The notes: generated from the letters alone by a model not told the origin. Shown: positions 1,277 through 50,450, numbered from the stretch's first letter. The stretch is DNA of 53,687 bases from a virus (IMGVR_UViG_3300037462_000020:1-53687); one strand, 5' to 3'. Numbers and translations are program-made.

Positions 1277-1483
1277 CTAAACGGTCCGGTTCGTATTCAT
1301 CTTCATCAATCTATACCGTCCAGTTCATATTCATGTCTTCATCTATATCAATATCTGCATCCGTTCTGGCAACGCATTGTTTTTATCCTCCGGTCCAAAC
1401 TGCCTTACTTTTGCCACAATTGGGGGCCATACAGGGTCCATGGCAAGCGCGGTGCTTGCCTGCTAACACAAAGGGTCTACCAA

Positions 1484-1909
1484 ATGGCTACCACCAAAAC
1501 CGCCCCCGCCCCCGTTGCCGCCGCTAAGGCCGCCCCCGCCCCCGCCCCCGTTGCCGCCCCCGTTGCGGCCCCGCTGGCCCCGCAAGCCCCGCTGTTTACC
1601 TTTGCGCCCTACAGCCCCGCCGCTGGCATGGGCTGGCCCGCCAAGGCCATGCAGGGCGCAACGGTGCGCGCCTATTGCGCCAAGGTGGCGCAGGCGCTGG
1701 CCAAGGCACAGCCCAACGGCTTTACCGTGGCACAGTATGCCGCCGCGCTGGCCGCTGCACAGCCCGGCACCACCTACCGCCTGCCCGCCAATGGCTTTGG
1801 CAATGCCGCCAACGGTGGCCAGCCCAACGCCACGGCCCGCCAGCACGCCACTTGGTTTGCTAACACTGGCCGTTACCTTGTGCCCGCTGGCACGGTGGCC
1901 AAGGGCTAA
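1484..1909 (+). CDS. Ala/Pro-rich basic protein (141 aa) with no Asp or Glu, inside a GA/TC-free island
   Basis: ATG 1484 after a leader hairpin and AAGGG; protein-like C-terminal domain; palindrome after the stop. Confidence 0.7.
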   Translation: MATTKTAPAPVAAAKAAPAPAPVAAPVAAPLAPQAPLFTFAPYSPAAGMGWPAKAMQGATVRAYCAKVAQALAKAQPNGFTVAQYAAALAAAQPGTTYRLPANGFGNAANGGQPNATARQHATWFANTGRYLVPAGTVAKG

Positions 1910-1925
1910 GGCCCGCCACGCCACA

Positions 1926-1951
1926 GGCCAGCCCCCGCGCGGGGGCTGGCC
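1926..1951. repeat. perfect 26-bp palindrome GGCCAGCCCCCGCGCGGGGGCTGGCC (terminator-like or protein-binding site)
   Basis: Self-complementary; 16 bp after the stop of 1484-1909; no U tract. Confidence 0.8.
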
Positions 1952-1982
1952 ACCCTGCCACCCCTAGCACAAGGCCCAAGCC

Positions 1983-2168
1983 ATGCCCCGCCCCTACAGC
2001 CCCCGCCCCTACGCTACACGCAAGGCCAGCCCCCGCGCCAAGGCCAGCCCCGCCCCCGCCGTGCTGGCCCCCGCCGTGCTGGCCGTGCTGGCCGTGGTCG
2101 GCGTCTGGTATATGCTGGCCCCCATGCTGGCCCATATCCAGTCCGCTCTGGCCGTGGCCATGCCATAG
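1983..2168 (+). CDS. small membrane protein (61 aa) with no Asp or Glu
   Basis: Basic N-terminus plus hydrophobic helix AVLAVLAVVGVWYMLA. Confidence 0.5.
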   Translation: MPRPYSPRPYATRKASPRAKASPAPAVLAPAVLAVLAVVGVWYMLAPMLAHIQSALAVAMP

Positions 2169-2356: not shown

Positions 2357-2376
2357 CGTCTGAGGAGGATCTTAGC

Positions 2377-6346: not shown

Positions 6347-7177
6347 ATGGACCCGCTCGAACTTGAGTATGACAGCCTTTCGGCTGTTCCCGAAGCTTTC
6401 CGCGGTCTCTTCAGTGAGAAAGATGGCAAGGCTGTTCTGACCGGAATCAACGGTCTGAAGACCCAGAACGACATCAACAATCTGCAAGAGGCCCTCCGCA
6501 AGGAGCGCAGTGATCACGCCGCTGCCAAGGCCGCGCTGCATCCCTGGAATTCTTTCGGCAAGAAGCCCGAGGAACTTCAGGCTCAGCTCGATCGCATCGC
6601 TGAACTCGAGGCTGCCGCCTCTGGCAAGGTCGATGACAAGAAGCTGAACGAACTGGTCGAAGCCCGTCTTGGGCAGAAGGTCGGCCCGATCGAGCGTCAA
6701 CTTCGGGAGAATACCACTCTCCTGGAAACCGTCACCCGCGAGCGGGACACTTTCCGCGATCAGCTTTTCCGTCGCGAGATGACCGACATCGTTCGCAACA
6801 TCGCCACCGAGATGAAGGTGGTTCCCAGCGCGATGGCCGACGTCGAACTCTTCGCTCAGTTCGCTCTGGAGCGTCAAGAGGATGGCACCTTCATCACGAA
6901 GTCTGGCATTCCCGGCGTGACGCCTGGAGTCGACGCCAAGACTCTGCTTCGTGAGATGCAGAAACAGCGGCCTCACTGGTGGCCTGCCTCGGCCGGAGGC
7001 GGTGCTGGTGGCGGAACGGGTGGCATCAACGGTGACAAGAACCCGTGGTCGGCTCAGCACTGGAATCTCACCGAGCAGGGCAAGATCGTCCGCGAGCATG
7101 GCATGGCCAAGGCTCAGGAACTGGCGAAACTCGCTGGTTCTCACGTCGGCGCGACGAAGCCTGCACAGAAAAAGTGA
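6347..7177 (+). CDS. capsid scaffolding protein
   Basis: Coiled-coil body; C-terminal PHWW..S.GGGAGG and NPWS...WNLTEQ motifs. Confidence 0.85.
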   Translation: MDPLELEYDSLSAVPEAFRGLFSEKDGKAVLTGINGLKTQNDINNLQEALRKERSDHAAAKAALHPWNSFGKKPEELQAQLDRIAELEAAASGKVDDKKLNELVEARLGQKVGPIERQLRENTTLLETVTRERDTFRDQLFRREMTDIVRNIATEMKVVPSAMADVELFAQFALERQEDGTFITKSGIPGVTPGVDAKTLLREMQKQRPHWWPASAGGGAGGGTGGINGDKNPWSAQHWNLTEQGKIVREHGMAKAQELAKLAGSHVGATKPAQKK

Positions 7178-7179
7178 CC

Positions 7180-7208
7180 TTGCTCTAGCCCTGCCCTTGC
7201 GCTATGGT
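7180..7208 (+). promoter_or_regulatory. sigma70-type promoter
   Basis: TTGCTC-17-TATGGT. Confidence 0.55.
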
Positions 7209-7213
7209 GTAGG

Positions 7214-7313
7214 GGCGGGGCGGGGTCTGGTAGCCTACCGCCACGCATGGCTTGCAGCGTCACCGCCGCTGTAACACGAACGGCCCCGGCGCTTCATTGA
7301 GCCGGGGTCGTTT
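7214..7313 (+). ncRNA. candidate ~100-nt small RNA
   Basis: Promoter upstream, internal hairpin TTGCAGCG/CGCTGTAA, terminator at the end, no credible ORF. Confidence 0.35.
7279..7313 (+). terminator. intrinsic terminator
   Basis: AACGGCCCCGGC...GCCGGGGTCGTTT. Confidence 0.7.
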
Positions 7314-7328: not shown

Positions 7329-7357
7329 TTGTCTGAAAACAAGTCTTGTGCTACGAT
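7329..7357 (+). promoter_or_regulatory. sigma70-type promoter
   Basis: TTGTCT-17-TACGAT. Confidence 0.65.
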
Positions 7358-7379
7358 CCCTCAAAATCCGAGGAACAGC

Positions 7380-7673
7380 ATGACTTCTCCAATCTTCAAA
7401 ATTGGTGACACGATCAAAGTCGTTTCTCGGCTATTCGAGGATGATGGCACTCCTTTTCCGATCAACACCAAGGTCATTCGGTCTGTTCTGAAGAAAGGCA
7501 ATGAAGAAATCGTCGGCGTGAATCAGCTGACCGATAACTTCACGGTCATCACAATCTTCCAGACAACCGGAGCGACGGCTGGTCGCTATCAGACTGATAT
7601 CCGTTTCACGGAAGGAACCGAATCTTTCTCGACGCCAGTGGTGGTCGTCGATGTCGGACCGAGGATCAGCTGA
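7380..7673 (+). CDS. putative virion protein (beta-rich, BppU/Ig-like)
   Basis: RBS GAGGA; G.Y..DIRF motif. Confidence 0.6.
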   Translation: MTSPIFKIGDTIKVVSRLFEDDGTPFPINTKVIRSVLKKGNEEIVGVNQLTDNFTVITIFQTTGATAGRYQTDIRFTEGTESFSTPVVVVDVGPRIS

Positions 7674-7966: not shown

Positions 7967-7968
7967 TC

Positions 7969-8763
7969 ATGGCCAGAGATTTTCTGACTGACATCAATAT
8001 GGGTGGAGGCGCTCGGGTCATCGGGCTTCTCGATCCTGTCAACCCCCAAGACGCAGCGACGAAGGCATACGTCGATTCTGCTGTCGAAGGCATCGCGTGG
8101 AAATCGAACGTTCGTGTCGCTTCGACTGCGAACATCAACCTTTCCGCTCCGGGTGCCACGATCGACGGCATCACGATGGCGGTGAACGATCGCTTTCTCG
8201 CGAAGGATCAGACCACCCAGACTCAGAACGGCATCTATGTCTGGAACGGTGCTGCCACTCCGGCGACTCGTGCTGCTGACGCAAGCACGTTCGAGGAACT
8301 CGAGCAGGCTGTGGTCACCGCCGAGGAAGGCACTTCGAACGGTGGAACGACTTGGCGTCAAACCCAAGTGAATGGAACCGTCGGTTCCTCGAACATTCTG
8401 TTCACAGCTTTCGGCACGAGCGCAGGTGCTGCGACGGAGACCGCTGCTGGTGTCGCCGAGATTGCGACTCAGGGTGAGACGGATACGGGAACTGATGATA
8501 CCCGTTTCATCACTCCTCTGAAGCTGGCGAACTGGTCCGGTCGCAAGCGCAAGGCTTCCGCTGTGATCGGTGATGGCTCGGCCACCACCTTCAACATCGA
8601 TCACAACTTCAACACTCGGCAGGTCGTGGTCGAAGTCTACCGCAACAACGGCAACTTCGATACCGTGATCGCTGATGTGTCTCGACCGACGGTCAACCGC
8701 GTGACGATCACGTTCGCCTCGGCTCCGGCACTGAACGCCTACGAAGTCGTGGTTCTGGGGTAA
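7969..8763 (+). CDS. head/tail fibre-like structural protein
   Basis: DPVNPQDAATKAYVD, VRVASTANINLS.PGATIDG...R.L.KDQ....NGIY and GVAEIATQ.ET..GTDD..FITP fibre motifs. Confidence 0.8.
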   Translation: MARDFLTDINMGGGARVIGLLDPVNPQDAATKAYVDSAVEGIAWKSNVRVASTANINLSAPGATIDGITMAVNDRFLAKDQTTQTQNGIYVWNGAATPATRAADASTFEELEQAVVTAEEGTSNGGTTWRQTQVNGTVGSSNILFTAFGTSAGAATETAAGVAEIATQGETDTGTDDTRFITPLKLANWSGRKRKASAVIGDGSATTFNIDHNFNTRQVVVEVYRNNGNFDTVIADVSRPTVNRVTITFASAPALNAYEVVVLG

Positions 8764-8767
8764 GAAC

Positions 8768-9601
8768 ATGGTCATCGCAACAAGAGATCAGGCGTTCAAC
8801 GCTCTCGCCAACAACTCTTCGCGTTTCGTCTTGGAAAAAGCTTCCTTGGCGAACCAAGTCGCGAACACGCTTTGCAGCATGTGGAGATCTGCTGGTCAGC
8901 CTGCTCAGGGAGCGATTCCTGGAACGACTCCAGCTGTTCCGACGAAGGCTACTCTTGGAGCGATCGACTTCGCGAATCAGCTTTCCCCGGTCACCTCTTA
9001 TCTCCTCTGGGCTCTCGTTTACTCTGGAAACAGCGGCGGAGCAGTAGAATTTCATGATCGAGTCGCCCACATGGGAGGTCTCGTTCTAAACGTCACGACT
9101 GCTCAGAACATTACTGGTCTTGACATTTCCACTCTTGGGCTCGCTGCAGAACGTCGAGGGCCTGCTGATTTTTCTGATCTTCAGTGGTTCCTCGAAGTCT
9201 ACACCGATGGCGGTGCAACCGCTTCGAACGCAACAATCAACGTCACATATGATGATGCGACGACAGGAAACCTCACCGTCGTTGCTGTCGGCGGCACTCT
9301 TCGTGCTGGTCGAATGATTCCACTCACTCCTCTGATTCCTACCGCTCAGCAGGGGAAAAAGATTCGCGGTATCAACAGCGTGACTCTGAGTGCTTCTACT
9401 GGAACGGCTGGAAACTTCGGATTCACCTGCACCAGACAGAGAACTGGTGTCCCGATGGGACTCGCTGGAACTCCTTCGAAGCTGACTTGGCAAGACGGAT
9501 CGGCAGAAGTTCCGAACGATTCTTGTATCATGCTTGTCGTGAACTGCGCCACTACTTCTTCTGGAACAGTTCGCGGACAAGGCAAGATCGCTCATGGCTG
9601 A
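8768..9601 (+). CDS. putative virion structural protein
   Basis: Gly/Thr/Ala-rich beta protein inside the structural operon. Confidence 0.65.
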   Translation: MVIATRDQAFNALANNSSRFVLEKASLANQVANTLCSMWRSAGQPAQGAIPGTTPAVPTKATLGAIDFANQLSPVTSYLLWALVYSGNSGGAVEFHDRVAHMGGLVLNVTTAQNITGLDISTLGLAAERRGPADFSDLQWFLEVYTDGGATASNATINVTYDDATTGNLTVVAVGGTLRAGRMIPLTPLIPTAQQGKKIRGINSVTLSASTGTAGNFGFTCTRQRTGVPMGLAGTPSKLTWQDGSAEVPNDSCIMLVVNCATTSSGTVRGQGKIAHG

Positions 9602-28747: not shown

Positions 28748-28890
28748 GCGGGCCGCTGGTGGCCCTTGGCCGCTGGCCGCACCCTACCCCCTGCCGGGGG
28801 CCTTTGCCGCGCTGGCGGGGCCGCTGGCGCGGGGCTGGTGGCCAATGGCACAGGCCAGCCGCCACCAACACGTCTACAGGTGTCCAAAGG
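28728..28890 (+). repeat. GA/TC-free conserved element, copy A
   Basis: No GA/TC at 28728-28873; ACCCTACC at 28781; GCCACCAACA-N5-ACAG-N2-GTCCA at 28861. Confidence 0.85.
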
Positions 28891-28900
28891 AGGTAGTCTG

Positions 28901-30319: not shown

Positions 30320-30564
30320 GTTGAGTCAAGTAGAGTCACCCGCGCCTCGTAACCCATTGTTTTTGCTGTGGTGGCTTTACATGCAGCACTTACACAGGCA
30401 CGGCGCGGTTGCTAGGCCCACAGGGTGCAGCGAAGCAAAAGGTGCACGGCGGGTTTAGTTATGTTTGTCCTGTAAGTTAAGTAAAGAGAAAGAAAAGTAA
30501 GTGTTTACAGGGCTTTAGGTATGGCTTAACTTGGCAGGCATAACTTATCAAAGTAGAGCATGTT

Positions 30565-37836: not shown

Positions 37837-37892
37837 TCTGATGTTGGAGGCAATGGTGCTTCCAAGGCAAATGTGCAGAAATGGAGTCACCC

Positions 37893-38606: not shown

Positions 38607-38611
38607 CCTTC

Positions 38612-39535: not shown

Positions 39536-39719
39536 TTGGGCATTCTGGCTCGTGGTCTGGTGGGCAGGGTGGTTTCTCATCCTGCTCACTTGGTATGAGA
39601 ATAACAAGAAGGAAGCACTTTCCGGATGGGTGTGTTTCTTCATGTTTTTTATGGCTGGATTTGCGCCGATCGTAGGCTTGATCATCGCAGTAAGAAAAGG
39701 CTTTAGAAAAGACAACTAG
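39528..39719 (+). CDS. small membrane protein
   Basis: Two hydrophobic segments; GTG start overlapping the previous stop. Confidence 0.55.
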   Translation: MPDWAFWLVVWWAGWFLILLTWYENNKKEALSGWVCFFMFFMAGFAPIVGLIIAVRKGFRKDN

Positions 39720-39722
39720 CAC

Positions 39723-39752
39723 TTGTCTTTTACAGCCGCCCCGTGCTACTAT
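39723..39752 (+). promoter_or_regulatory. sigma70-type promoter
   Basis: TTGTCT-18-TACTAT. Confidence 0.65.
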
Positions 39753-39781
39753 AAATCACACGAAGCAGCGGGGCATGAAAT

Positions 39782-41071
39782 ATGAAAATTCTGGTTGCGC
39801 TTCACCAAGTCATGGATCTTGGCGGCATCATCAACCACACAGAGCAACTGATCGGCGGCCTGAAAGATCTCGGCCACACAGTTCATCTGAAGCAGTTCGT
39901 CTATGGGATGAACGCATTCGACCAGAGGCGTGACGGTGACTTCATCGTCGGCCCAAGTGGAATTCCGCACAATCAGGGCAAGGGCTGGAACTTCACGCGA
40001 ATGCAGCGTGTTCCCTACAAGGGCGGCGCGAACCTGACATCTGCCAAGCAGATCCTCTCTGGGTATGACCTCGTGATCTGGACCGTGCCTGTTCCTTCCA
40101 AGAACAAGGAGAACCTCGGCAATCACGAATGGGTGGAACTGTATGACCTTCCGCCCAAGGTGAAGCAGATCGCCTTCGTTCATGACGGCAACATTCGCCA
40201 AGGTGCGCCTCACATTCTGGCGATCCATGACAAGCTGTCTGGTCTGGCCTGTGTCCATGGCTGTGCGCTCAACGGCTCCGACTTCATTCCCGTTCCGCGG
40301 GCGCTGATCCTCAATCCCCAGGAGATGCCGGTTCGTGGCGTCGCAGCTTGGTCTTCCAAGAAGCCGGGATTCGTGAACATGCAGACCTTCAAGGCTTGGA
40401 AACATGCTCATGAACTCATTCAAGCGATCGCCTACATGCCCAACAAGGAAGATGGCGAACTGCGCGAAGTCGCTGGCATGGGCATCGAGTATCAGTATAT
40501 GACCAGCGAGGACAAGTGCAAGGAAGAATATTTCCACGGTCCTGCTGACGACGCGTGGTTCGGCGGTATGCGATTCTGGGAAGCTGCCGAGATGAACGGC
40601 ATGGTCCATCACGGCTACTGGAACACGAATGAAGTCGCCGCGTGGCTGACGCAGGCTCGGGTCTTGGTTGACCCTAGCTGGTCCAGAAAGTATTCGGCGA
40701 TCGGCGGTCACTGGAACCGTGTCGTCGTTGACGCCATGATCCATGGTGTGATCCCCGTCGCCACTGAGATGGGCATGGGTTCGGAGATCTTTGAGGAGGG
40801 TGTTCATTACGTTGGAATTCCCGCCGGAGGTAACGATCCTCAGCAATACGCTGACATCATCCTCGAGACCAGCCACATGAACTATCGTCAAGCGGAGAAT
40901 TTCCGAGACGCTGCTCTCGATGTGCTTCCTCTTTTCGACCGCAAGACCGTTGCTCAGCAGGTCGTCGATCTTGCGAACGGAAACCTCGACACCGTCACCG
41001 GTTCCTTGAAAGGCGAGTTCGCTGACAAGGCCAGTGACATCATGTTCAACCACTTTGGAGTCCTGATGTAA
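39782..41071 (+). CDS. GT-B fold glycosyltransferase, putatively DNA-modifying
   Basis: MKIL...GG...H...L..GL..LGH.V N-terminus; LVDPS and VDAM..G.IPV C-terminal motifs. Confidence 0.75.
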   Translation: MKILVALHQVMDLGGIINHTEQLIGGLKDLGHTVHLKQFVYGMNAFDQRRDGDFIVGPSGIPHNQGKGWNFTRMQRVPYKGGANLTSAKQILSGYDLVIWTVPVPSKNKENLGNHEWVELYDLPPKVKQIAFVHDGNIRQGAPHILAIHDKLSGLACVHGCALNGSDFIPVPRALILNPQEMPVRGVAAWSSKKPGFVNMQTFKAWKHAHELIQAIAYMPNKEDGELREVAGMGIEYQYMTSEDKCKEEYFHGPADDAWFGGMRFWEAAEMNGMVHHGYWNTNEVAAWLTQARVLVDPSWSRKYSAIGGHWNRVVVDAMIHGVIPVATEMGMGSEIFEEGVHYVGIPAGGNDPQQYADIILETSHMNYRQAENFRDAALDVLPLFDRKTVAQQVVDLANGNLDTVTGSLKGEFADKASDIMFNHFGVLM

Positions 41072-42042
41072 TGCAGATTATCTCTTCCCGAAACGTCAAC
41101 GAGGCCCTTCTGCTTGGGCTTCATGCCGTGAATGAATACGGCGTTCTCCGTGACAGCCGCAACGGTCCTGTCAAGGTGTTCCGGACTCCGGTGACAACGA
41201 TCTATGAGCGGCCGACCGAGCGTGTCGTGTTCTACCCAGAGAGGGACGCCAACCCGTTCTTCCACTTTATGGAAGGACTGTGGATGATCGCTGGTCGCAA
41301 TGATGTCGAGTGGATCAGCCGGTTCAACTCGTCCATCGTGAACTACAGCGATGATGGTGTCACCTTCCATGGGGCCTACGGCTATCGCTGGCGGAAACAT
41401 TTCGGCTTCGATCAGCTGGACATCATCGCCCACCTGCTTCGCACGAACCCTGACGATCGCCGTATCGTTCTGCAGATGTGGGATCCTCGCGTCGACCTCG
41501 CCCGTGGCGGCAAGGACTTTCCCTGCAATACGGCAATCAAGTTTCGTGTGCGGGATGGTGAACTTGACATGACCGTCGAGAACCGCAGCAACGACATGAT
41601 CTGGGGAGCCTACGGCGCGAATGCCGTTCATTTCTCAATGCTTCAGGAGTTCATGGCAGCGTGGACTGGTTTCCGTGTCGGCCACTACTGGCAGGTCTCT
41701 ACGAACTTCCACGCCTACGTCTCTACGATGGAGAAACACGCTTCTCTGCTGACGCTGTCTCCCGGCTTCGACGACTACAGCATCGGAGGCGTGGAGCCTT
41801 TCCCGATGGTGAACACGGACATCGAGACCTGGATGCAGGAACTCGATATGTTCATCAATGAAGGCGCTGTCCTCGGCTTCCAGGACAAGTTCTTCAAGAA
41901 GGTGGCGATTCCCATGCTGCTCGCGTGGCAAGCCTACAAGAACAAGGAGTATGGAAAGGCGCAGTCCATTCTCACAGAGACCTGCGTCGCAACCGACTGG
42001 CGCAAGGCCGGTATCGAGTGGATCGAGCGGAGGATCAAGTGA
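41071..42042 (+). CDS. thymidylate synthase homolog, probable dUMP hydroxymethylase
   Basis: YG.RW, D.PCN and RSND..WG...AN motifs (Asn implies a dUMP substrate); clustered with HMUDK. Confidence 0.85.
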   Translation: MQIISSRNVNEALLLGLHAVNEYGVLRDSRNGPVKVFRTPVTTIYERPTERVVFYPERDANPFFHFMEGLWMIAGRNDVEWISRFNSSIVNYSDDGVTFHGAYGYRWRKHFGFDQLDIIAHLLRTNPDDRRIVLQMWDPRVDLARGGKDFPCNTAIKFRVRDGELDMTVENRSNDMIWGAYGANAVHFSMLQEFMAAWTGFRVGHYWQVSTNFHAYVSTMEKHASLLTLSPGFDDYSIGGVEPFPMVNTDIETWMQELDMFINEGAVLGFQDKFFKKVAIPMLLAWQAYKNKEYGKAQSILTETCVATDWRKAGIEWIERRIK

Positions 42043-42591
42043 ATGTATAAACTTCTCACGAACCAAGAGCGTGTGAAGTTTCTTCGTGAGGCGGGTGACG
42101 TGCAGAGACTGCATGTCATTCGCACCATCGGGGAATACTCGAATGCACAGCATTCCTTCAACATGCTGGCGATCCTTCGCCTTCTCTGGCCGGACGCACC
42201 CATCCAGCTTCTCTGGGCTATCGTGGAGCATGATGTGCCTGAGCGACTGATCGGAGACATTCCCTCTCCTTCTATTCATTACGGCGGCTTCATCGAGCCG
42301 TTCTCGATGATGGAGATGGAGCAGAGGATTCTCGGCGAACTGTTCGGCGAGTTCCATCACACCAACCTCGACGATCTGCTTCAGAGTTGGCTCAAGGGTC
42401 TGGATCTGCTCGAACTCTACCTGTATGCGAAGGACCAACTTCGCCTCGGGAACCGCAACCTGGAGACGATGCGAGTGTTCATCGAGGAACGCTTCAAGCA
42501 GAAAGCGTCTCTGTATCCTGAACCCATTCTGAATCTCTTCTACGAGTGCAAGAATTCGGATTGGGTCCACCTTCCTGACCTTGGAGCCTGA
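42043..42591 (+). CDS. HD-domain 5'-deoxynucleotidase-like protein
   Basis: V.R.H, S.A.HS, HD.PE...GDIP.P and D.LE motifs. Confidence 0.85.
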   Translation: MYKLLTNQERVKFLREAGDVQRLHVIRTIGEYSNAQHSFNMLAILRLLWPDAPIQLLWAIVEHDVPERLIGDIPSPSIHYGGFIEPFSMMEMEQRILGELFGEFHHTNLDDLLQSWLKGLDLLELYLYAKDQLRLGNRNLETMRVFIEERFKQKASLYPEPILNLFYECKNSDWVHLPDLGA

Positions 42592-42593
42592 TC

Positions 42594-43205
42594 ATGAACG
42601 ACGGAACAGAACCTGACAATCGCTACGTCGCCCAAGAAGGAGGCGACCACTATCAGGCCGAGTATCAGCATTGGGACTGGGTGACTGATATCGGCATGGG
42701 CTATCTTCCTGGGAACGCCACGAAGTATGTCGCTCGCTGGCGCAAGAAGAACGGGCTGGCCGATCTCAAGAAGGCCATGACCTACATCGACAAGATGATC
42801 GCCATTCGCCTTGTTGATCCCATCGCCGTGTTCAACCATCCGATCGGCAATGGATACAAGCTGGCGAAATGCACCGAGAGGTTCGTCGCTGTGAACCAGC
42901 TTGGTGACAAGGAACGGTCCATCTGCGAGGCCTTGTCCTACAAGTGCGATGACGCAATGTTGCGCGTTGCTCGTGATACGCTGGCGAGCCTTGTGCTGGC
43001 CGCTGGCAGGGCACAAGCCCCCGCCGCTACCCTACCACCCGCCGCCCCCGTTGCGGCCCCTGCTGGCGCGGCCTGTGGCGCGGCTGGCGGTGCTGTAGGG
43101 CAGGCCCCCGCCACCAGCACGGCCACAGAGGTCCACAGAAAGGGTCTCGACGGCATGGAGCATCCTTTCGGCTATGATGACTGGCATGAAGGTGGTCCGA
43201 CGTGA
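42594..43205 (+). CDS. DUF3310-like (T7 gp1.7-type nucleotide kinase) protein with Ala/Pro-rich tail
   Basis: GG.HY...GNA.KY..R..KKNG..DL.KA..Y motif. Confidence 0.75.
   Translation: MNDGTEPDNRYVAQEGGDHYQAEYQHWDWVTDIGMGYLPGNATKYVARWRKKNGLADLKKAMTYIDKMIAIRLVDPIAVFNHPIGNGYKLAKCTERFVAVNQLGDKERSICEALSYKCDDAMLRVARDTLASLVLAAGRAQAPAATLPPAAPVAAPAGAACGAAGGAVGQAPATSTATEVHRKGLDGMEHPFGYDDWHEGGPT
42987..43140 (+). repeat. GA/TC-free conserved element, copy B (inside a CDS)
   Basis: No GA/TC at 42987-43128; ACCCTACC at 43029; GCCACCAGCA-N5-ACAG-N2-GTCCA at 43110. Confidence 0.85.
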
Positions 43206-43318
43206 CGTGGTTCCTCCTCGCGATCTGCGTAATCTTGGTCCTGCTTCCTCCGAAGTGGGACCCTGCAATCAGGCTCAAGGAATGGAACCAGAAACGTGGT
43301 CATCAGAAAGAAAAGTGA
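43202..43318 (+). CDS. small membrane protein (38 aa, LPPKWDPAIRLKEW)
   Basis: GTGA coupling; hydrophobic N-terminus. Confidence 0.5.
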   Translation: MTWFLLAICVILVLLPPKWDPAIRLKEWNQKRGHQKEK

Positions 43319-45359
43319 TCCCAACAAGGGAGGCGCTCTCCAGCTTGGCTTCTTTACTCCTGAAGCCAGATGGTCCCCTCCTTCTATGTCAGATCTACCG
43401 TCTTGGAAGGGCGCAAAGAGAATTGCGATCGACGCAGAAACTCGCGATCCATCTCTCAGCAATGGCCTTGGACCGGGTGCTATCCGAGATGGTTACTCGG
43501 TGGGATGGGCATTCGCCATTGATGGTGGACCAAAGCATTACCTTCCCTTCCGACACGAGGGTGGTGATAACCTACCGATCGAGCAGGTTCTCGGATATCT
43601 GAGAGCACAGATCAAGGACTTCGAGGGAGAGTTCGTCGGAGCGAACCTTTCCTACGATGTTGACTATGGCTACGCTGACGGTTTCGAGTGGAACCCGAAT
43701 GCCAAGTTTCGTGATATTCAGATCGCCGACCCTCTGATCTACGAACTTCACATGAACTACTCGCTGAAAGCAATCGGCGAGAGATATGGCATCCAGTCGA
43801 AGGACGAGAACGTTCTGCTGGAGGCTGCGCGCTCCTTTGGGCTTGACCCCAAGAAAGGGTTGTGGAGACTTCCCGCTCGCTATGTCGGCGAATATGGTGA
43901 GCAAGACGTTACCTCTCCGCTGGAAATCCTCAGTGCCCAAGAGAAGATCATCGAGCAGCGCGGCCTTCGGGAGATCTGGGACCTTGAGTCCGATGTTCTG
44001 CCGGTTCTGGTTCGTATGCGACGCCGTGGTGTTCGCATTGACTTTGATCGTCTTGAGCAGATCGAAATCTGGGCGGAAAATCAAGAGCGAGAAGCCCTGC
44101 GTCTCATCAAGCACGAGACTGGTGTTCAGATCGGCTTCGGTGATGTATGGAAAGCCAACGCTCTGGCTCCTGCTCTTGAAGCGACCGGTATGCGTCTCGG
44201 CAAGACTTCCACTGGCGCACCGCAGATCGACAAGGCGCTGCTGGCTGGAGCGAAGCATCCGGTTGCGAGTGCAGTTCTTCGCGCCCGCAAGGTGAACAAG
44301 ATCCGCACCACTTTCGCAGCATCTATTCGGAAGTATGCGATCAACGGTCGCATCCATTGCAGCTTCCATCAGATCGCTCGGGAGGACGAGGACGGTGACC
44401 AGAAAGGCGTTCGGTATGGACGCCTTTCTGCTGCTGATCCGAACATGCAGCAACAGCCTTCACCGGACCGTGATCCTGAAATTGCTGGAGAATGGCGCAA
44501 GATCTTCATACCAGAGGAAGGAGCGATCTGGGGCTGCAACGACTATTCTCAGCAGGAGCCCCGGTGGACGACTCACTTCGCGGCTGTGATGGATCTACCC
44601 AAGGCGAGAGAAGCTGCCCTCCGTTACCAGAACGACCCGAACACCGACAACCATGAGATGATGACGCGACTCATTCATGGTGACTCTCAGGTCGATGCGT
44701 GGTTGGCAGAGAAGTCTCCCAACTTCAAGGTCAACCGGGGATATGCGAAGAATATCTTTCTCGGCCTGTGCTATGGCGAGGGCGAGGCGAAACTGTGTCA
44801 CGACATCGGCCTTCCCACTCGTTGGGCTTTGATCACTGGATGGGGTGAGTATCGCAGAACCGAACTGTTCGAGCATCGCTACGAAGCGATGTCTGCTCGG
44901 ATGGAGGCTGGCAAGGGATACGTCAAGGAGGTCGCTGGTCCGGAAGGTCGCGATATTCTCGATAACTTCAACAGTGAAGTTCCATATGTCGGAAAGCTGG
45001 CTGAGGCTGCGACTGAAAGAGCCAAAGAGAAAGGCTTCGTCAAAACCATCTTCGGTCGACAGTTGAACTTCGAACGTCGTGATGATGGAACCTACGACTT
45101 CACCCACAAGGCTCTGAACAGAATCATCCAAGGTTCTTCTGCGGATCAGACGAAGCTGGCCATTGTGGAACTAGATCGGGCGGGATACTTCATCCAGCTA
45201 CAGGTTCACGACGAAACTGACGGTAGCTTCGGTTCTGTTGAAGAAGCGAAAGCTGCTGGCGATATCATGAGGGACTGCGTTCTTACTCGCTGTAAGCCGT
45301 GGGTTCCCTTCAAGGTCGATACTGAATGTGGTCCTTCGTGGGGAGAAGTCAAGAAATGA
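43296..45359 (+). CDS. polA: DNA polymerase family A (3'-5' exonuclease plus polymerase)
   Basis: IDAET, GRLS..DPN.QQ, DYSQQEPR, K...LG..YG, N..IQGS.AD and QVHDE motifs. Confidence 0.95.
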   Translation: MVIRKKSDPNKGGALQLGFFTPEARWSPPSMSDLPSWKGAKRIAIDAETRDPSLSNGLGPGAIRDGYSVGWAFAIDGGPKHYLPFRHEGGDNLPIEQVLGYLRAQIKDFEGEFVGANLSYDVDYGYADGFEWNPNAKFRDIQIADPLIYELHMNYSLKAIGERYGIQSKDENVLLEAARSFGLDPKKGLWRLPARYVGEYGEQDVTSPLEILSAQEKIIEQRGLREIWDLESDVLPVLVRMRRRGVRIDFDRLEQIEIWAENQEREALRLIKHETGVQIGFGDVWKANALAPALEATGMRLGKTSTGAPQIDKALLAGAKHPVASAVLRARKVNKIRTTFAASIRKYAINGRIHCSFHQIAREDEDGDQKGVRYGRLSAADPNMQQQPSPDRDPEIAGEWRKIFIPEEGAIWGCNDYSQQEPRWTTHFAAVMDLPKAREAALRYQNDPNTDNHEMMTRLIHGDSQVDAWLAEKSPNFKVNRGYAKNIFLGLCYGEGEAKLCHDIGLPTRWALITGWGEYRRTELFEHRYEAMSARMEAGKGYVKEVAGPEGRDILDNFNSEVPYVGKLAEAATERAKEKGFVKTIFGRQLNFERRDDGTYDFTHKALNRIIQGSSADQTKLAIVELDRAGYFIQLQVHDETDGSFGSVEEAKAAGDIMRDCVLTRCKPWVPFKVDTECGPSWGEVKK

Positions 45360-45544
45360 AAAGCAACCTTCTGGATATTCCTGCTCGGTTCATCGCCGAG
45401 ACAGAGAAGGCGAGAAAGTTCGACGTCGGTCTTAAGGATGCTGTCTGGCTTCCCAAGAGCCAACACGAATGGGATGAGGCAGAAGGAATCATCACTCTGC
45501 CTGAAGATGTGGCCATCGAGAAAGGTATGGAGAATCTCGCATGA
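45356..45544 (+). CDS. hypothetical protein (ETEKA...VWLPKSQ)
   Basis: ATGA coupling at both ends. Confidence 0.7.
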   Translation: MKSNLLDIPARFIAETEKARKFDVGLKDAVWLPKSQHEWDEAEGIITLPEDVAIEKGMENLA

Positions 45545-46038
45545 AATGGAACCAGAAAACGATTCACCAGTGGGGAATCGATACGTTCGGAAATGCTGCC
45601 CTCAACACTCTGGGCGTCGCTATCCGAATGTCGAAGGAAGCGATCGAACTTTCGAACGTTCTCATGAAGCTGGATGATGTCGAGAAGATCTCGATGGAGT
45701 CTGCTGATGTCGCGATCGTTCTCGTTCAGGTTGCGAACTGCATCGGCTTCGATGTTCACGCTGAAGATCAAGCTGTCGAAGAAGTCGACAGTGCGATCGA
45801 CACTGAAATCGATGCCGCCATGATCTTGAACGCAGCGGCTATCGATCTTCTGTCCGCGATCTTCCATGGTGCGGAGAGAACGCAGGTTGTTCTTCAGATC
45901 AGGAAGATCATGACCTGTCTCGGCGCGCTCGAAGAGATCTACGAATTTGATCTGGTTGAGAAGATCCAGGTCAAGATGGAGATCAACGCCGCCCGTCAGT
46001 GGGCTCAGGGTAAAGATGGGAGTTTCCAGCATGTCTGA
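45541..46038 (+). CDS. MazG-like nucleotide pyrophosphohydrolase
   Basis: W...TFG, E..EL, E.ADV.I and KM.IN..R.W motifs. Confidence 0.75.
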   Translation: MKWNQKTIHQWGIDTFGNAALNTLGVAIRMSKEAIELSNVLMKLDDVEKISMESADVAIVLVQVANCIGFDVHAEDQAVEEVDSAIDTEIDAAMILNAAAIDLLSAIFHGAERTQVVLQIRKIMTCLGALEEIYEFDLVEKIQVKMEINAARQWAQGKDGSFQHV

Positions 46039-46462
46039 TCATCACAAGACCCTGATGAACATTGCATGGGCGCACTCTTCGATGAGCCGAGATCCCTCGA
46101 CCAAGGTGGGCGCTGTCATCGTCGATCAAGGCCGCATTGTGTCTTGGGGATACAATCATGTTCCTGAACAGATTCCCCACACCGAAGACATGCTGCACGA
46201 TCGGGAATGGAAATATCCAAGGGTGATCCACGCAGAGCATCACGCGATGTCGCAGATCGGAGTTCATCGACTCAAGTATCCGATCATGTATGTGACGCAC
46301 CATCCCTGCGAACGGTGCGCCGCTGCGATCATTCATGGTGGCATTCGTGAAGTCTACACTCACAGGCCGCCGAGTGAGATGCTGGATCGGTGGCCGGGAA
46401 TGAAGATCGCTGCGGAAATGTTCCTCGAAGCGAAGATTCCGCTGACTTTCGTAGAACTTTAG
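46031..46462 (+). CDS. dCMP deaminase
   Basis: S.DPSTKVGAVI, GYN, HAE and PC.RC motifs. Confidence 0.92.
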   Translation: MSDHHKTLMNIAWAHSSMSRDPSTKVGAVIVDQGRIVSWGYNHVPEQIPHTEDMLHDREWKYPRVIHAEHHAMSQIGVHRLKYPIMYVTHHPCERCAAAIIHGGIREVYTHRPPSEMLDRWPGMKIAAEMFLEAKIPLTFVEL

Positions 46463-46465
46463 CCA

Positions 46466-46494
46466 TTGTCTCGGCGGTGTCAAGCGGCTACTGT
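46466..46494 (+). promoter_or_regulatory. sigma70-type promoter
   Basis: TTGTCT-17-TACTGT. Confidence 0.6.
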
Positions 46495-46519
46495 AAAAGC
46501 CAACTAGAAGGTTCCCATC

Positions 46520-47161
46520 ATGCAATATCATCCCGAATACGATGTCTGGTTCATGGGGCATGGAGATCCCTATGTCTTCACCGAGCAGCGTCGTGATTAT
46601 GGTCGTGTCGCTGAACGGGCCAAGGGTGCTCGTGTCCTGGACTTCGGCGCTCACTGCGGCTTCTTCAACGTGTTTCTAAGTCGCAGCTTCGAGCCCGCCT
46701 CGATCATCTCGGTGGAGCCGGATCGTCGCATGGAAGAGGTTCTGAAGAAGAACGTTCGTCCAGGAACTGAACTGATCATGGCCGCTGTCGTCGATCAGAC
46801 GTATCCCGAGATGTTCATTCCACTGTATCTCGGAAAGACTTTCTCGGCCACCAACTCCATCGAGCCGTTCCGCGGTCGCGAGGAAGTTCAGGTGCCCGTG
46901 GTTCACTTCCAGGAACTTCTGGCAACTGGTGTGAATTTCATCAAGTGTGACTGCGAAGGTGGCGAGTATTCTCTGGACTGGTCCAATCTTCCGACCGAGG
47001 TTCACACCATCGCCATCGAGTTTCACTTCCACCGCCCTTCTTGGGCTACCGAGATGGAGAACATCAACGGTCGTCTTGTCTCTCAGGGCTTCCGTTTTGT
47101 TCGTCGGCCGAAAGTCAACAATTTCCGGAAAGTGGACACGGGGCTCTATGTCAGAGGCTAG
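46520..47161 (+). CDS. FkbM-family SAM-dependent methyltransferase
   Basis: VLDFGAHCG.F, VEPD, IKCDCEGGEY and IEFH motifs. Confidence 0.85.
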   Translation: MQYHPEYDVWFMGHGDPYVFTEQRRDYGRVAERAKGARVLDFGAHCGFFNVFLSRSFEPASIISVEPDRRMEEVLKKNVRPGTELIMAAVVDQTYPEMFIPLYLGKTFSATNSIEPFRGREEVQVPVVHFQELLATGVNFIKCDCEGGEYSLDWSNLPTEVHTIAIEFHFHRPSWATEMENINGRLVSQGFRFVRRPKVNNFRKVDTGLYVRG

Positions 47162-47585
47162 TATGAAGTCGGTGCTGACGAGGGCGCTGTCTTCGTTGGA
47201 CCCTGTCTGTATCGAAAGCCCAAAGACAGGGCTGGGAATTCCCGACGTCAATTTCATTGGAGGATGGTTCGAATGCAAGAATCTGGATGCGTGGCCAAAG
47301 GGAGCGGACACCAATCCGGTGAAGTTCAAGCATCCTCTATCGAAAGAGCAGGGGATCTGGCTATACCGGAGAGCGAGAGCGGGTGGCTTCGCGATGGTCT
47401 GCGCGAAGGTTTCGTGCTCGTGGTTCTTCTTCGACGGAATGTGGATCAAAGATAGATGGGACAAGATGACACGGCAGGACATGATCTTGGAAGCGGATCT
47501 GTATATGCCGAACAAGCTGGAGAAGGAACGGCTGCTGAAATTCATTGCAGAGCGGTCGGAGAACTCACGCCTCGCGAGAAGCTGA
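47148..47585 (+). CDS. PD-(D/E)xK nuclease (VRR-NUC/resolvase-like)
   Basis: IE....GIPD.....W.E.K...EQ..W...R...GG motif. Confidence 0.8.
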   Translation: MSEASMKSVLTRALSSLDPVCIESPKTGLGIPDVNFIGGWFECKNLDAWPKGADTNPVKFKHPLSKEQGIWLYRRARAGGFAMVCAKVSCSWFFFDGMWIKDRWDKMTRQDMILEADLYMPNKLEKERLLKFIAERSENSRLARS

Positions 47586-47884
47586 TTCTCTACAGGCGTC
47601 GGCTGGAGTTCAGTCAAGAACAGATGGCCGCGCTGTTCGGTATTCACCGAGAGACCTATGGCAGAATTGAAAGGGGACAAATTCCCCAGACGGAAGATGT
47701 CGTTGGTGATCTCGGCGGGCTGCGCGACCATGAGAAGTGCTATATTCTCAGGAAGCGTTCCGGAAGAAGGCAAATAGAATGCGCTCAGGAAATGGGCGTC
47801 ACGAGGTTCTGGTTCAATCAGATGGAACTTGGCAAGGTTCCCTGCGAGCCACTTATCGAATACTGGAGAAGCCATGCAGGGTGA
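47456..47884 (+). CDS. tandem XRE-type HTH protein (start uncertain)
   Basis: RRRLEFSQEQMA..FGI.RETY.RIERG and a second R..Q.E.A..MGV......E.G. Confidence 0.75.
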   Translation: MGQDDTAGHDLGSGSVYAEQAGEGTAAEIHCRAVGELTPREKLILYRRRLEFSQEQMAALFGIHRETYGRIERGQIPQTEDVVGDLGGLRDHEKCYILRKRSGRRQIECAQEMGVTRFWFNQMELGKVPCEPLIEYWRSHAG

Positions 47885-50258
47885 CAGCAAGAGAGCAGTA
47901 GAGTTCCTCAAGAAATGGAACCCGAATGGTCCTTGGGTTCTTACGAGTATCAGCACTGATCGCAAGGGTATCACGACCACGACCTTCACTCCGTCGGAGG
48001 AGAAGGAACTGCTCTCTTGGCTGAACAAATTCAACGGCGATCGCAACATCTACTTCTCCGTCAACACGGTGAAGGGCAAGGCAACGAGCAAGGCCAACAA
48101 GGAAGACATTTCTTCTGCCGAATGGCTGCACGTTGATATCGACCCCGCCGATGGTCAAGATCTCAAGGAAGAGCGTGAGCGGGCGCTGTCCACTCTTACG
48201 GATCGTCTGCCCAAGGGAGTTCCCGAGCCGACCTGCATCGTGTTCTCGGGCGGCGGCTTCCAGGCTTTCTGGAAACTCAAGAAGCCCGTGGTCATTGATG
48301 GTGACATCGCCAAGGCCGAGGAGTTCGAACTCTACAACAAGCGTCTGGAGCAGATCTTCGGAGGCGATCACTGCCACAACGTCGACCGCATCATGCGCCT
48401 TCCTGGGACAGTCAACGTTCCTGACGCCAAGAAGCGTAAGAAGGGCCGTGTTGAGGAACTGGCGGCGCTGCTCCAGTTCACCAAGAATGAGTATGATCTC
48501 GAGCAATTCAAAAAGGCAGCGGGAGTTCAGATCTCGAGCGGCAGTTCGGCTCGTGATGGTGGCGATTACGGTCAGAACCTTGACATTCCCGGTAATGTGG
48601 AACGCATCCAAGATCTTTCAGAATTGGATGCGTGGAACGTTCCAGATCGTGTCAAGATTATCGTTGCTCAGGGTATGCACCCTGATCAGCCCAAGAAGGA
48701 TGACAACTCTCGCTCGGCGTGGCTCTTCGATTGCGTCTGCTCTCTGGTTCGCTGTGGAGTTCCGGACGCAGTCATCTATTCTCTGATCACTGACGCTGAT
48801 TGGGGCATCGCCTCCTCTGTTGTTGAGTTGAAAGGTGGCGCTGATCGGTATGCTCGCAGGCAGATCAAGCGAGCCAAGGAGTATTGCGAGGATCCGAACC
48901 TTACAACGATGAATGATCGACATGCGGTCATTGGCAACATCGGTGGAAAGTGCCGTGTTATTGAAGAGATTACCGACGAGGTTCTCCACCGCAGCCGTAT
49001 CACATTGTCTTCGTTCGAGGACATTCGCAACCGATATGGTCACATTCAGGTTCAGGTCGGCACGACGGACAAGGGTCTGCCAATCATGCAGTCTCTCGGC
49101 AAGTATTGGCTGAACAGTCCGAACCGCCGACAGTATGACACCATGAAGTTCATGCCTCAGGGTGATCGTCCGGGTGTCTACAATCTATGGCGCGGCTTCA
49201 ACGTAGAGCCTCGCCCCGGCGACTGTTCTCTGTATCTCGCGCACATTCGTGACAACGTCTGCTCTGGCCGTGAGGACTATTACAAATATGTGATCAACTG
49301 GCTGGCGCGGACTGTTCAGACTCCAGCTTCTCCTGGCGAAGTCGCGATCGTTCTTCGTGGTGGCAAAGGCACAGGGAAGTCGTTGTTTGCCACTCTCTTT
49401 GGGCGTCTATTCGGAAGGCACTTTCTGCATGTCGCGAACCCGTCGCATCTTGTTGGGAACTTCAACGCTCACCTGCGGGACGTCATCCCGCTTTTCGCCG
49501 ACGAAGCTTTCTTCGCTGGCGACAAACGACACGAATCTGTTCTCAAGATGCTCGTCACAGAAGACTCCATTCCCATTGAAGCAAAAGGAGTCGACGTCGA
49601 GACGTATCCGAACTACGTCCACCTGATCATGGCTTCCAACGACCCGCACGTCATTCGGGCAACCGGAGACGAACGCAGGTATTTCGTTCTGGATATGGGC
49701 GAGAACAGAAAGCAGGACAAAGCCTATTTCAAGGCCCTGATCGACCAGATGGAGAACGGCGGCTACGAGGCCCTTCTCTACTTCCTGCAATCTGTTGACT
49801 TGACCGACTTCCAGGTTCGTGACGTTCCTGAGACTGACGCTCTGCAAGAACAAAAGCTGCTGTCCATGAGCATCGACGAAGAGTGGTGGTATAGAAAACT
49901 GCAGAACGGGCGTATTCTGGATCACGACGCTAAGTGGGAACGCAACGTTCTCTGCGACGCAGTTACTCACGACTTCACCAGTTATGCTGAGAAATGGAAA
50001 TTCTCACGTCGTGGAAACGAAACGGCTCTAGGTCGTTTCCTTTCCAGGGTCTGTCCACACATCACCAAGTCTCAGCGGAGAACACTCGTCGAGGAGCCTG
50101 ATGAACACGGTCGGCCCAAGAGGGTAGCGAAGCGATCCTATCACTACGACTTCGGCACTCTTGATCAGTGTCGTGAAGCATGGTCCAAGATTTACGGCAA
50201 GATCGACTGGATGGAGCCGGTTCAGCTAGAACTAGATCAGCCTGAAGAACCATTCTGA
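47874..50258 (+). CDS. primase-helicase (RepB-like primase plus SF3 helicase)
   Basis: HVDID, SGGG.QAFW, RIMRLPGT.N, G.KGTGKS, FADEA and ERRYF motifs. Confidence 0.9.
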   Translation: MQGDSKRAVEFLKKWNPNGPWVLTSISTDRKGITTTTFTPSEEKELLSWLNKFNGDRNIYFSVNTVKGKATSKANKEDISSAEWLHVDIDPADGQDLKEERERALSTLTDRLPKGVPEPTCIVFSGGGFQAFWKLKKPVVIDGDIAKAEEFELYNKRLEQIFGGDHCHNVDRIMRLPGTVNVPDAKKRKKGRVEELAALLQFTKNEYDLEQFKKAAGVQISSGSSARDGGDYGQNLDIPGNVERIQDLSELDAWNVPDRVKIIVAQGMHPDQPKKDDNSRSAWLFDCVCSLVRCGVPDAVIYSLITDADWGIASSVVELKGGADRYARRQIKRAKEYCEDPNLTTMNDRHAVIGNIGGKCRVIEEITDEVLHRSRITLSSFEDIRNRYGHIQVQVGTTDKGLPIMQSLGKYWLNSPNRRQYDTMKFMPQGDRPGVYNLWRGFNVEPRPGDCSLYLAHIRDNVCSGREDYYKYVINWLARTVQTPASPGEVAIVLRGGKGTGKSLFATLFGRLFGRHFLHVANPSHLVGNFNAHLRDVIPLFADEAFFAGDKRHESVLKMLVTEDSIPIEAKGVDVETYPNYVHLIMASNDPHVIRATGDERRYFVLDMGENRKQDKAYFKALIDQMENGGYEALLYFLQSVDLTDFQVRDVPETDALQEQKLLSMSIDEEWWYRKLQNGRILDHDAKWERNVLCDAVTHDFTSYAEKWKFSRRGNETALGRFLSRVCPHITKSQRRTLVEEPDEHGRPKRVAKRSYHYDFGTLDQCREAWSKIYGKIDWMEPVQLELDQPEEPF

Positions 50259-50287
50259 TTTTCGCCGAAACCGCGCCGTGCTACACT
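50259..50287 (+). promoter_or_regulatory. possible sigma70-type promoter
   Basis: TTTTCG-17-TACACT with TGC before the -10. Confidence 0.45.
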
Positions 50288-50317
50288 ATTGTCATGACGC
50301 CAAACGGAGCCCGCCTG

Positions 50318-50450
50318 ATGCCCTTGCGCCTTGGCCGCACCCTTACCCCTGCCAAGGCCCGCAAGGCCCCCCGCTGGCCGCGCCTGTGGCCGCGCTGGCC
50401 GCACCCTAGCCCATTGGCCCGCCACCAACAGCACCACAGATGTCCAAGGA
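50318..50450 (+). repeat. GA/TC-free conserved element, copy C
   Basis: No GA/TC at 50318-50439; ACCCTTACC at 50339; GCCACCAACA-N5-ACAG-N2-GTCCA at 50421. Confidence 0.85.

Follow-up and report, generated by a model that had tools for sequence, protein, structure and literature searches.

The contig IMGVR_UViG_3300037462_000020:1-53687, which comprises 53,687 nucleotides (nt) of viral DNA (hereafter the window), carries a set of islands from which one base-pair step, read as GA on one strand and as TC on the other, is missing. The window has a GC content of 55.4%, is linear according to IMG/VR, has a CheckV completeness estimate of 85% and represents a clade of uncultured siphophage-like viruses. 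Every identified gene lies on the + strand. Those with structural roles encode a small and a large terminase, a portal, a tape measure, a tail fibre and an endolysin-like protein; those for replication and metabolism encode an HNH endonuclease, SNF2 and Dda-like helicases, a ribonucleotide reductase, a family-A DNA polymerase, a primase, a ligase and a UDG-family protein (Pfam scans covered 30 of the window's open reading frames, ORFs).

GA (4549 occurrences, observed/expected 1.35) and TC (4706, observed/expected 1.44) are the most over-represented dinucleotides of the window, TA being the most depleted (observed/expected 0.39), and together GA and TC begin at 17.2% of positions, that is, at one in every 5.8. 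The tetramers GATC (515) and TCGA (453) each exceed the prediction from base composition more than twofold, roughly as the excess of GA and TC alone would give. Six stretches of 85-622 nt contain neither GA nor TC, a seventh is depleted, and the next longest gap measures 57 nt. A density scan (no more than 4 steps per 80 nt, the mean being 13.8) returned seven depleted segments and no others. These are listed below, each island being followed by the depleted segment that holds it.

1477-2098: island 1, 622 nt free of GA and TC, 74% GC, between the two terminase genes (depleted segment 1366-2286)
7177-7278: partial island, free of GA and with two TC, between genes 6347-7177 and 7329-7673, after the head-morphogenesis gene (7157-7308)
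18327-18465: island 2, in frame within the tape-measure gene (17135-20260), in a segment rich in Ala, Gln and Gly (18296-18498)
28728-28873: island 3, between the tail-fibre gene (25365-28511) and gene 28901-29242, before the 28901-endolysin group (28679-28900)
30348-30432: island 4, at the head of the replication module, 58% GC (30324-30576)
42987-43128: island 5, in frame in the C-terminal linker of a DUF3310 protein (gene 42594-43205), about 170 nt upstream of the DNA polymerase gene (42949-43147)
50318-50439: island 6, in the non-coding spacer between primase and ligase genes (50268-50460)

A preliminary description of this DNA had reported that GA and TC are abundant and are absent from these six stretches; its coordinates proved exact and the effect stronger than first stated. 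It had also placed a depletion at about 7186-7276, where we count 0 GA and 2 TC in 91 nt, and two islands in frame inside other genes, which are the tape-measure and DUF3310 genes. Only the spacing needed correction: neighbouring islands are 1.6-16.8 kb apart, rather than about 2-13 kb. The islands lie at module borders and in two protein linkers, and also in the region between the terminase genes that holds the gene P5 (below). Islands 3 and 6 are treated as non-coding; ORFs of 58 and 47 amino acids with similar C-termini can be read in them, and small proteins were rejected on the finding that the island-6 ORF is broken by frame-shifting insertions and deletions (indels) relative to the related locus L001 (loci and genomes of relatives are cited by L and G numbers).

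Neither chance nor base composition accounts for the islands. The longest run free of GA and TC did not exceed 97 in 500 mononucleotide shuffles of the window or 60 in 100 first-order Markov simulations; the observed value is 621, so that runs of this length are not reached in shuffled controls. The GC content is 74-77% in five of the six islands (island 4 being the exception), and the earlier statement that high GC alone is no explanation holds: when each island was shuffled 5000 times using its own letters, zero GA/TC was obtained in 0/5000 shuffles for all six, the number of steps expected from island composition being 10-59 and the minimum reached 2-37. A log score for dinucleotide gaps gave 108 for GA/TC and at most 7.6 for the nine other strand-symmetric steps. 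Chance or GC content as the cause is excluded both by the shuffles and by the behaviour of these nine steps. A and T persist in the islands in TG/CA, TT/AA and TA contexts, TG/CA being frequent, and runs of CCCCC are 88-fold enriched. GA-free and TC-free runs coincide at every island: an absence that is symmetric on the two strands fits an agent acting at the level of the duplex.

Island 1 is the most extensive, and coding sequence within it allows the effect of the missing step on codon choice to be seen directly. Three features are relevant.

1484-1909, + strand: gene P5, encoding 141 amino acids, wholly within island 1; an Ala/Pro/Lys-rich N-terminal tail, a conserved domain of about 90 amino acids, no Asp or Glu
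1983-2168, + strand: ORF P6, encoding 61 amino acids with a hydrophobic C-terminus; mostly within island 1, weakly conserved (tblastn matches in only 2 loci)
1201-1440: island-1 flank, TC-dense on the + strand and free of GA; 33 TC and 0 GA in 1201-1400

P5 is a member of a widespread and unannotated phage protein family. A profile search found 199 database relatives, 22 aligned homologues share 11 invariant columns, and there is no match to the family in Pfam, PHROG or NCBIfam. The tail is rich in Ala, Pro, Lys and Thr and acidic residues are almost absent throughout: among 119 homologues from the database, 79 contain no Asp or Glu and 110 contain two at most, these two residues making up 12.5% of the window's bulk proteins. 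At bulk density about 60 GA/TC steps are expected per copy of the P5 gene; of the 23 copies examined, nine contain none, eight contain 1-8 and six contain 10-38.

The bulk genes of the window encode Phe by TTC in 86% of instances, Ile by ATC in 73% and Ser by TCN in 73%. The ORFs of island 1 use TTT for 5/5 Phe and AGC for 4/4 Ser and have no Ile codons; codons containing GA or TC number zero, where 19.8 would be expected at bulk usage. The same shift is seen across 22 P5 genes, in which TTC is used 11 times and TTT 51 times for Phe, TCN 30 times and AGY 95 times for Ser, and GTC 22 times and the other codons 129 times for Val (the mean bulk fractions in the same loci being 0.69 for TTC, 0.73 for TCN and 0.34 for GTC). 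In island 1, codons ending in C dominate (GCC 38/54, CCC 22/25), just as the rule predicts: any codon may follow them without creating GA or TC. That P5 homologues avoid TC- and GA-containing codons by synonymous choice, and are nearly devoid of Asp and Glu, indicates that selection on the DNA itself maintains the islands, rather than chance, low complexity of the protein or mutation bias. Low-complexity linkers as the sole cause were rejected in addition because islands 3, 4 and 6 and the partial island are non-coding, because shuffles of the islands' own composition never reach zero and because synonymous codons are shifted.

Outside the islands the opposite preference is evident. With proteins and global codon usage held fixed and synonymous codons shuffled (300 shuffles), both halves of the step are in excess at the codon junctions of the window (GA, z=+20.7; TC, z=+30.8) and TA is scarce (z=-28.9). 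CC and GG are also depleted at these junctions (z=-22.5 and -15.2). Automated junction ratios for GA/TC are 1.36/1.74 in the window and 1.18-1.46/1.27-1.64 in nine loci of the clade; the corresponding values are 1.11/1.19 for phage M6, 1.15/0.96 for Ab18 and 0.92/0.88 for Simon.

The surroundings of island 1 have a structure of their own. GA is missing from 1182-2204 and a second TC-free run occupies 2148-2270. Directly upstream of the TC-dense flank is a GA-dense block (1101-1200, with 23 GA and 5 TC); three to four direct repeats of 34 nt lie at 1209-1324 and a 55-nt repeat is found at 388-442 and 1122-1176. The block 1101-1440 could be a packaging or replication site. A similar strand-asymmetric dense flank is present in eight of nine relatives examined, and in L089 its polarity is opposite. 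For this last reason a template-strand logic, suggested by the fact that the GA-free run at island 1 starts some 300 nt before the TC-free run, was dropped. A perfect 11-bp GC-rich hairpin (GGCCAGCCCCC gcgc GGGGGCTGGCC) is located at 1926-1951, inside island 1 and 17 nt after the P5 stop codon, with no T-run after it.

An AlphaFold 2 (AF2) model of P5 (predicted local distance difference test score, pLDDT, 78.6) contains a compact domain. Foldseek comparison of the model with the PDB returned nothing at E≤0.001; VIA-align gave a top Z of 5.4, and many of its rows with Z 3.5-5.4 are winged-helix domains, these scores being below the tool's stated noise level. The tail, the compact domain and these weak matches suggest, as a lead only, that P5 may be a linker-histone-like DNA binder.

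Islands are not peculiar to the window. GA/TC-free patches are found at equal genome positions in many independent metagenomic relatives, whose GC content ranges from 38 to 59% and whose proteins are in some instances only about 45-55% identical. The DUF3310 protein, whose gene contains island 5, has 223 relatives at E≤0.001; in their alignment the island region forms a conserved segment rich in Ala, Pro and Gly, also where the sequences on either side differ. Twenty IMG/VR loci with a DNA polymerase at least 63% identical to that of the window (38-58% GC) were taken as clade loci: the GA/TC-free run at this site measures 115-143 nt in 11 of them, 63-81 nt in four and 41-48 nt in five, the segment in these last five being depleted rather than empty. 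Among 60 other loci fetched by the same query, only L029 has a run that reaches 100 nt at this site. The position of island 6 is likewise kept, a second patch being found 7-8 kb downstream of the DUF3310 site, in the primase-ligase spacer of relatives.

A run of 100 nt or more precedes terL in 28 of 79 loci; in 18 loci it reaches 200 nt or more, the longest being 784 nt, and counterparts of island 1 measure 570-784 nt. No run above 83 nt was found upstream of terL in the 29 loci that have a distant version of this gene. The tape-measure island recurs at the same depth in L169 and L170 (111-123 nt) and in L172 (59 nt). Before the homologue of gene 28901 there are paired runs of 50-61 nt in L167, L169, L170, L172 and L173 and a single run of 137 nt in G002, and upstream of SNF2 there are runs of 66-80 nt in L169, L170 and L173. 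These three islands recur where tail proteins are only ~45-65% identical. In five relatives that are 97-100% complete (G001-G005) the GA+TC observed/expected ratio is 1.27-1.32, and every one of these genomes has 4-10 runs of 55 nt or longer, part of them at common positions and part lineage-specific. Across 62 non-redundant islands the GC content is 49-80% and there is no universal motif: the sequence drifts and acquires indels, and the property is kept.

A more distant lineage, represented by L029 (HMUDK_hel protein, see below, 28% identical; 49% GC), has GA/TC-free runs of 128-144 nt at 323-466, 8226-8353 and 8677-8804. The phenomenon may be wider than one clade and not tied to bulk enrichment, the bulk of L029 being poor in the step.

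The contig itself is probably incomplete: the genes at its ends are open, the CheckV estimate is 85% and relatives are 59-65 kb long. The small terminase gene (1-452) is open at its 5′-end, its profile match beginning at position 43 of 180, and an ORF at 52841-53686 runs past the 3′-end. A search of a phage collection, in which records very close to the window may be lacking, found no close cultured relative, the top matches being 58% for terL (phage RDJL3) and 55% for PolA (Simon). When region 41000-50990 was compared with four sequencing runs, contigs mostly less than 95% identical to the window were found in drinking-water, aquatic, wastewater and animal-gut metagenomes; on this account the clade is environmentally widespread. 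One sequencing run contains the window in full and may be its source; 23 others share 7-13% of its words, and no RNA dataset is on record among them.

What the islands might do was approached through searches for known kinds of signal. The preliminary description had proposed windows for proteins such as host RNA polymerase. A scan for the sigma-70-type -35/-10 consensus, which covers one promoter type, found none inside the GC-rich islands, which lends no support to that proposal; one site lies at 2328-2356, just after island 1. Consensus scans for terminators were likewise negative within the GC-rich islands. The primase-ligase patch of several relatives lies just upstream of a TATAAT-like element, and that of the window and L001 just downstream of a TGnTACACT element. 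Folding of six segments as RNA gave z-scores of -1.26 to +0.88, no better than shuffles, and searches for Rfam families (at gathering score) and transfer RNAs (tRNAs) gave 0 matches; RNA structure as the cause was rejected on these results.

A shared binding motif was also rejected. Pooled k-mers of the 62 islands gave only lineage-specific words, such as CCCTGCCC, and words of the P5 coding sequence. Within the window three islands contain a 29-nt 3′ motif (CCGCCACCA...ACAG.TGTCCA) at 79-83% identity, and islands 3 and 6 have a 50-nt block in common (74%). At best, islands resemble one another by 74-83% over 29-58 nt; neither near-identical copies nor terminal inverted repeats nor target duplications were found. 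The octamer GCTGGTGG, which we take to be the Chi sequence of E. coli, is found on the + strand at 4108, 7004, 10792, 14527, 28755, 28834 and 29567, two of these copies being within island 3, and on the - strand at 43111.

The window contains genes for a candidate pathway of thymine modification, most of them in a cluster at 37881-42591.

37881-38606: uncharacterised protein of 241 amino acids with a Lys/Ala-rich tail, at the start of the cluster
38612-39535, + strand: HMUDK_hel-family protein (PF18723, E=6e-33, profile positions 6-277 of 281)
39782-41071, + strand: group-1 glycosyltransferase, inside the modification cluster
41071-42042, + strand: thymidylate-synthase-family protein, candidate dUMP hydroxymethylase (Pfam Thymidylat_synt, E=5e-23; 54% identical to M6 gp58)
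42043-42591, + strand: candidate nucleotide phosphohydrolase (weak HD-domain match, below the Pfam cut-off)
45947-46462, + strand: dCMP deaminase
46520-47161, + strand: FkbM-family methyltransferase

In its thymidylate-synthase-like and HMUDK_hel-family genes, located in one cluster, and in its dCMP deaminase and weak HD match, this set resembles the sequence-context-dependent thymidine-hypermodification system of phages M6, ViI and phiW-14 (Lee et al. 2018/2021; Flodman et al. 2019); in M6 and Ab18, which are related phages, the modification cluster lies in the same genome neighbourhood as that of the window. The product of 41071-42042 is a candidate by homology, hydroxymethylase and methylase activity not being separable by sequence. 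The HMUDK_hel protein is a homologue of M6 gp55 (26.5% identical over 339 columns), and some records label its family aGPT-Pplase clade 1. By hmmscan, M6 gp55 belongs to PF18723, M6 gp54 to PF18748, and M6 gp51 and Ab18 ORF09 to PF18724 (amino acid:DNA transferase); gp54 is the protein reported to be the 5-hydroxymethyldeoxyuridine (5-hmdU) kinase by Lee et al. (PMC8989533). Most of the clade loci whose sequence includes the expected position of the glycosyltransferase were found to have it, L014, L015 and L022 being the exceptions.

Together these observations lead us to prefer, tentatively and with slightly less than even confidence, the reading that the islands are sequence-encoded exemptions from a TC/GA-specific modification of the phage's DNA, most plausibly one that acts on the hydroxymethyl-uracil-derived thymine of 5′-TC-3′ on either strand. 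A phage-encoded modification would act at the GA/TC step, most plausibly on the T of TC; the bulk of the genome would be enriched in the step so as to raise the density of modification; and the islands would be written as unmodifiable patches of near-native, T-poor DNA at fixed places, there to serve DNA-protein transactions that the modified duplex would hinder. For island 1 the leading guess would be recognition for packaging near the terminase genes, on the grounds that a maximally modifiable block lies beside an unmodifiable one between these genes.

Several published observations are consistent with TC as the target. Flodman et al. (2019, PMC6449724) infer a TG/TC context for the thymine modifications of M6, ViI and phiW-14, in which only part of the thymines is modified, apparently according to the 3′ neighbour; in the window TC/GA alone is avoided, TG/CA being frequent in the islands. 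A phage T-dioxygenase, 5mYOX97, is described as preferring NTC (PMC13229309): like the agent envisaged here it is a phage enzyme that acts post-replicatively and chooses thymine by a 3′ C, although its enzyme family is a different one. Putrescinylthymine is said to be placed non-randomly and might matter for packaging (Kropinski et al., citing unpublished data, PMC5977210). In the window 38.7% of thymines (both strands) precede C, which we count in favour of modification of the thymine in TC, given that the share of T replaced is put at 43% in ViI and 47-48% in phiW-14 DNA (PMC6449724). The link to thymine hypermodification is plausible, if unproven.

A number of findings weigh against it. The preliminary description had assigned to the window a pathway of the M6/ViI type, with a dUMP hydroxymethylase and a 5-hmdU DNA kinase. 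The thymidylate-synthase-like gene and the HMUDK_hel protein are indeed present, but the supposed kinase is the homologue of gp55 and not of gp54. The P-loop 5-hmdU kinase family PF18748 has no match at E≤1 in the window (estimated to be 85% complete) and none at E≤0.1 in any of the five relatives that are 97-100% complete; the same search recovers it from M6 (E=1e-19) and Ab18 (E=4e-4), and tblastn with M6 gp54 and Ab18 ORF12 gave no match. The amino acid:DNA transferase (aGPT-Pplase clade 2, PF18724) is likewise absent from the window and from all five near-complete relatives, and the assignment to the M6/ViI type has to be given up. Judged by its genes, the pathway of the clade appears to be a variant, uncharacterised one, with a glycosyltransferase in the cluster where the M6 type has kinase and transferase. 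The absence of these two enzymes, together with the glycosyltransferase and the 241-residue protein, suggests an undescribed route of modification, possibly to a glycosylated hydroxymethyluracil.

M6, Ab18 and Simon, moreover, contain no dinucleotide-free islands for any step, so that islands are no general trait of phages that hypermodify thymine. Restriction sites such as GGCC would lie exposed in GC-rich islands that are unmodified (46 of the genome's 252 GGCC fall in the 2.3% of the sequence made up by islands), a cost with no benefit that can be named. Natural 5-substituted uracils are reported to affect transcription by T7 RNA polymerase only moderately (PMC11550810), from which it follows that a modified duplex need not block proteins. 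The heavily hypermodified DNA of Carin-5 is described as resisting amplification (PMC12686479), whereas genomes of the present clade assemble from ordinary metagenomes. The bulk of L029 is poor in GA/TC (frequency 0.096), a misfit with enrichment of the bulk combined with islands. Finally, junction enrichment is not specific to the clade (two unrelated loci, L020 and L140, have high values too) and may in part be a consequence of TA avoidance; we regard it as supportive, not specific.

A more far-reaching form of the exemption reading is possible but doubtful. The sequence would then hard-wire an epigenetic map: TC/GA would be enriched to carry a bulky coat of modified thymine, and the islands would stay native as the sole reading sites of particular proteins (terminase at the P5 region, other factors at module borders), the P5 family lacking acidic residues because GAN codons are forbidden.

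The main rival, rather unlikely in our judgement, is that another GA/TC-specific agent is responsible: a modification of A, C or G, a nuclease or nickase of phage or host, or a deaminase that is specific for TC and attacks exposed single strands. Nothing in the evidence for selection on the duplex step favours one agent over another, neither the canonical kinase nor the transferase was found, and the products of the genome include an FkbM-family methyltransferase, an HNH endonuclease and a UDG-family protein. The 7-deazaguanine modification of phage CAjan is reportedly located at GA and GGC. However, no gene for deazaguanine, Mom-type or cytosine modification was found among the 30 ORFs scanned, and under a nuclease or deaminase directed at TC the step should be selected against throughout the genome, whereas the bulk of the window is enriched in it 1.35-1.44-fold.

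Mutational decay is a good deal less probable. Here a modified T in TC would mispair (TC to CC, GA to GG) and unconstrained DNA would drift towards GC-rich, GA/TC-free sequence without function. Islands are indeed GC-rich, contain CCCCC runs, occupy spacers or low-complexity linkers and are poorly conserved and rich in indels; in the tape-measure island, Gly codons occupy positions at which Glu or Asp would be expected in a coiled coil. But the synonymous trend is in the opposite direction, the junction T|C being over-represented 1.74-fold (z about +28 to +31), with GGA preferred to GGG (25% vs 8%) and AGA to AGG (11% vs 6%). Nor can a bias from T to C make TTT from TTC, and Phe is TTT in 51/62 codons of the 22 P5 genes and in 5/5 in the window. 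In addition, the length of the island at one site stays at ~105-145 nt across distant genomes. Decay is kept only as a minor contributor, and A-to-G hypermutation at GA as the main cause was dropped on the same codon and junction evidence.

An origin of the islands by copying of a GC-rich interspersed repeat or mobile element, or by acquisition of DNA from a high-GC source, is very improbable. The short motifs common to islands (the 29-nt motif in three and the 50-nt block in islands 3 and 6) would be in keeping with a repeat, but the hallmarks of copying (near-identical copies, terminal inverted repeats, target duplications) are missing, and positions are kept across genomes whose proteins are only 45-60% identical, so that the property outlasts divergence of the sequence. 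High-GC genomes use GAC, GAG, TTC and ATC freely, and acquisition from such a donor would leave the total lack of GA/TC unexplained. The possibility that errors of assembly or base-calling produced the pattern, or that it merely follows from proteins rich in Ala and Pro, can be given next to no weight even though the genome is a metagenomic contig and two islands encode Ala/Pro/Gly-rich peptide: the feature is present in contigs from many independent samples and collections (recurrence in IMG/VR, Logan, ENA and JGI sequences rules out an artefact of a single assembly), three islands and the partial one are non-coding, and the step is avoided in all frames and at synonymous sites.

Islands exempt from modification, if that is what they are, would have partial parallels elsewhere. 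As an example of the avoidance of restriction and other target sites in phage genomes, the first-step-transfer DNA of phage T5 reportedly lacks EcoRI sites, and here too the sequence would leave an enzyme without a target in a defined part of the genome; in the window, by contrast, it is a 2-bp step that is avoided, the avoidance is total over 85-780 nt and local, and the same word is enriched elsewhere. Vertebrate CpG islands and kinetoplastid base J domains offer an analogy, being patches at the borders of transcription units whose modification state is unlike that of the bulk. CpG islands retain their target dinucleotide and owe their protection to proteins, whereas here the target is deleted from the sequence and the pattern would be hard-wired. 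Rickettsia palindromic elements are GC-skewed segments of ~100-150 nt found between genes and in frame inside genes; they are recognisable repeats at variable sites, whereas the islands are positionally conserved, divergent and defined by a missing dinucleotide. The feature is far from any known kind of genome organisation, and no published account of an arrangement of this kind came to light in full-text literature searches, in agreement with what had been supposed at the outset.

Even if the link to modification fails, there is a total, conserved and local ban on one base-pair step that has no described cause and needs one. If the link is true, sequence alone would reveal both the dinucleotide targeted by a phage's DNA modification and the places where the phage cannot tolerate it, and the specificity of modification would be predictable from metagenomes without isolates. 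A rule at the level of DNA would override protein composition, to the point of producing a conserved protein family without Asp or Glu, and the short conserved pieces of DNA would probably mark key protein-DNA contacts, at packaging and at module borders, in a large group of uncultured phages.

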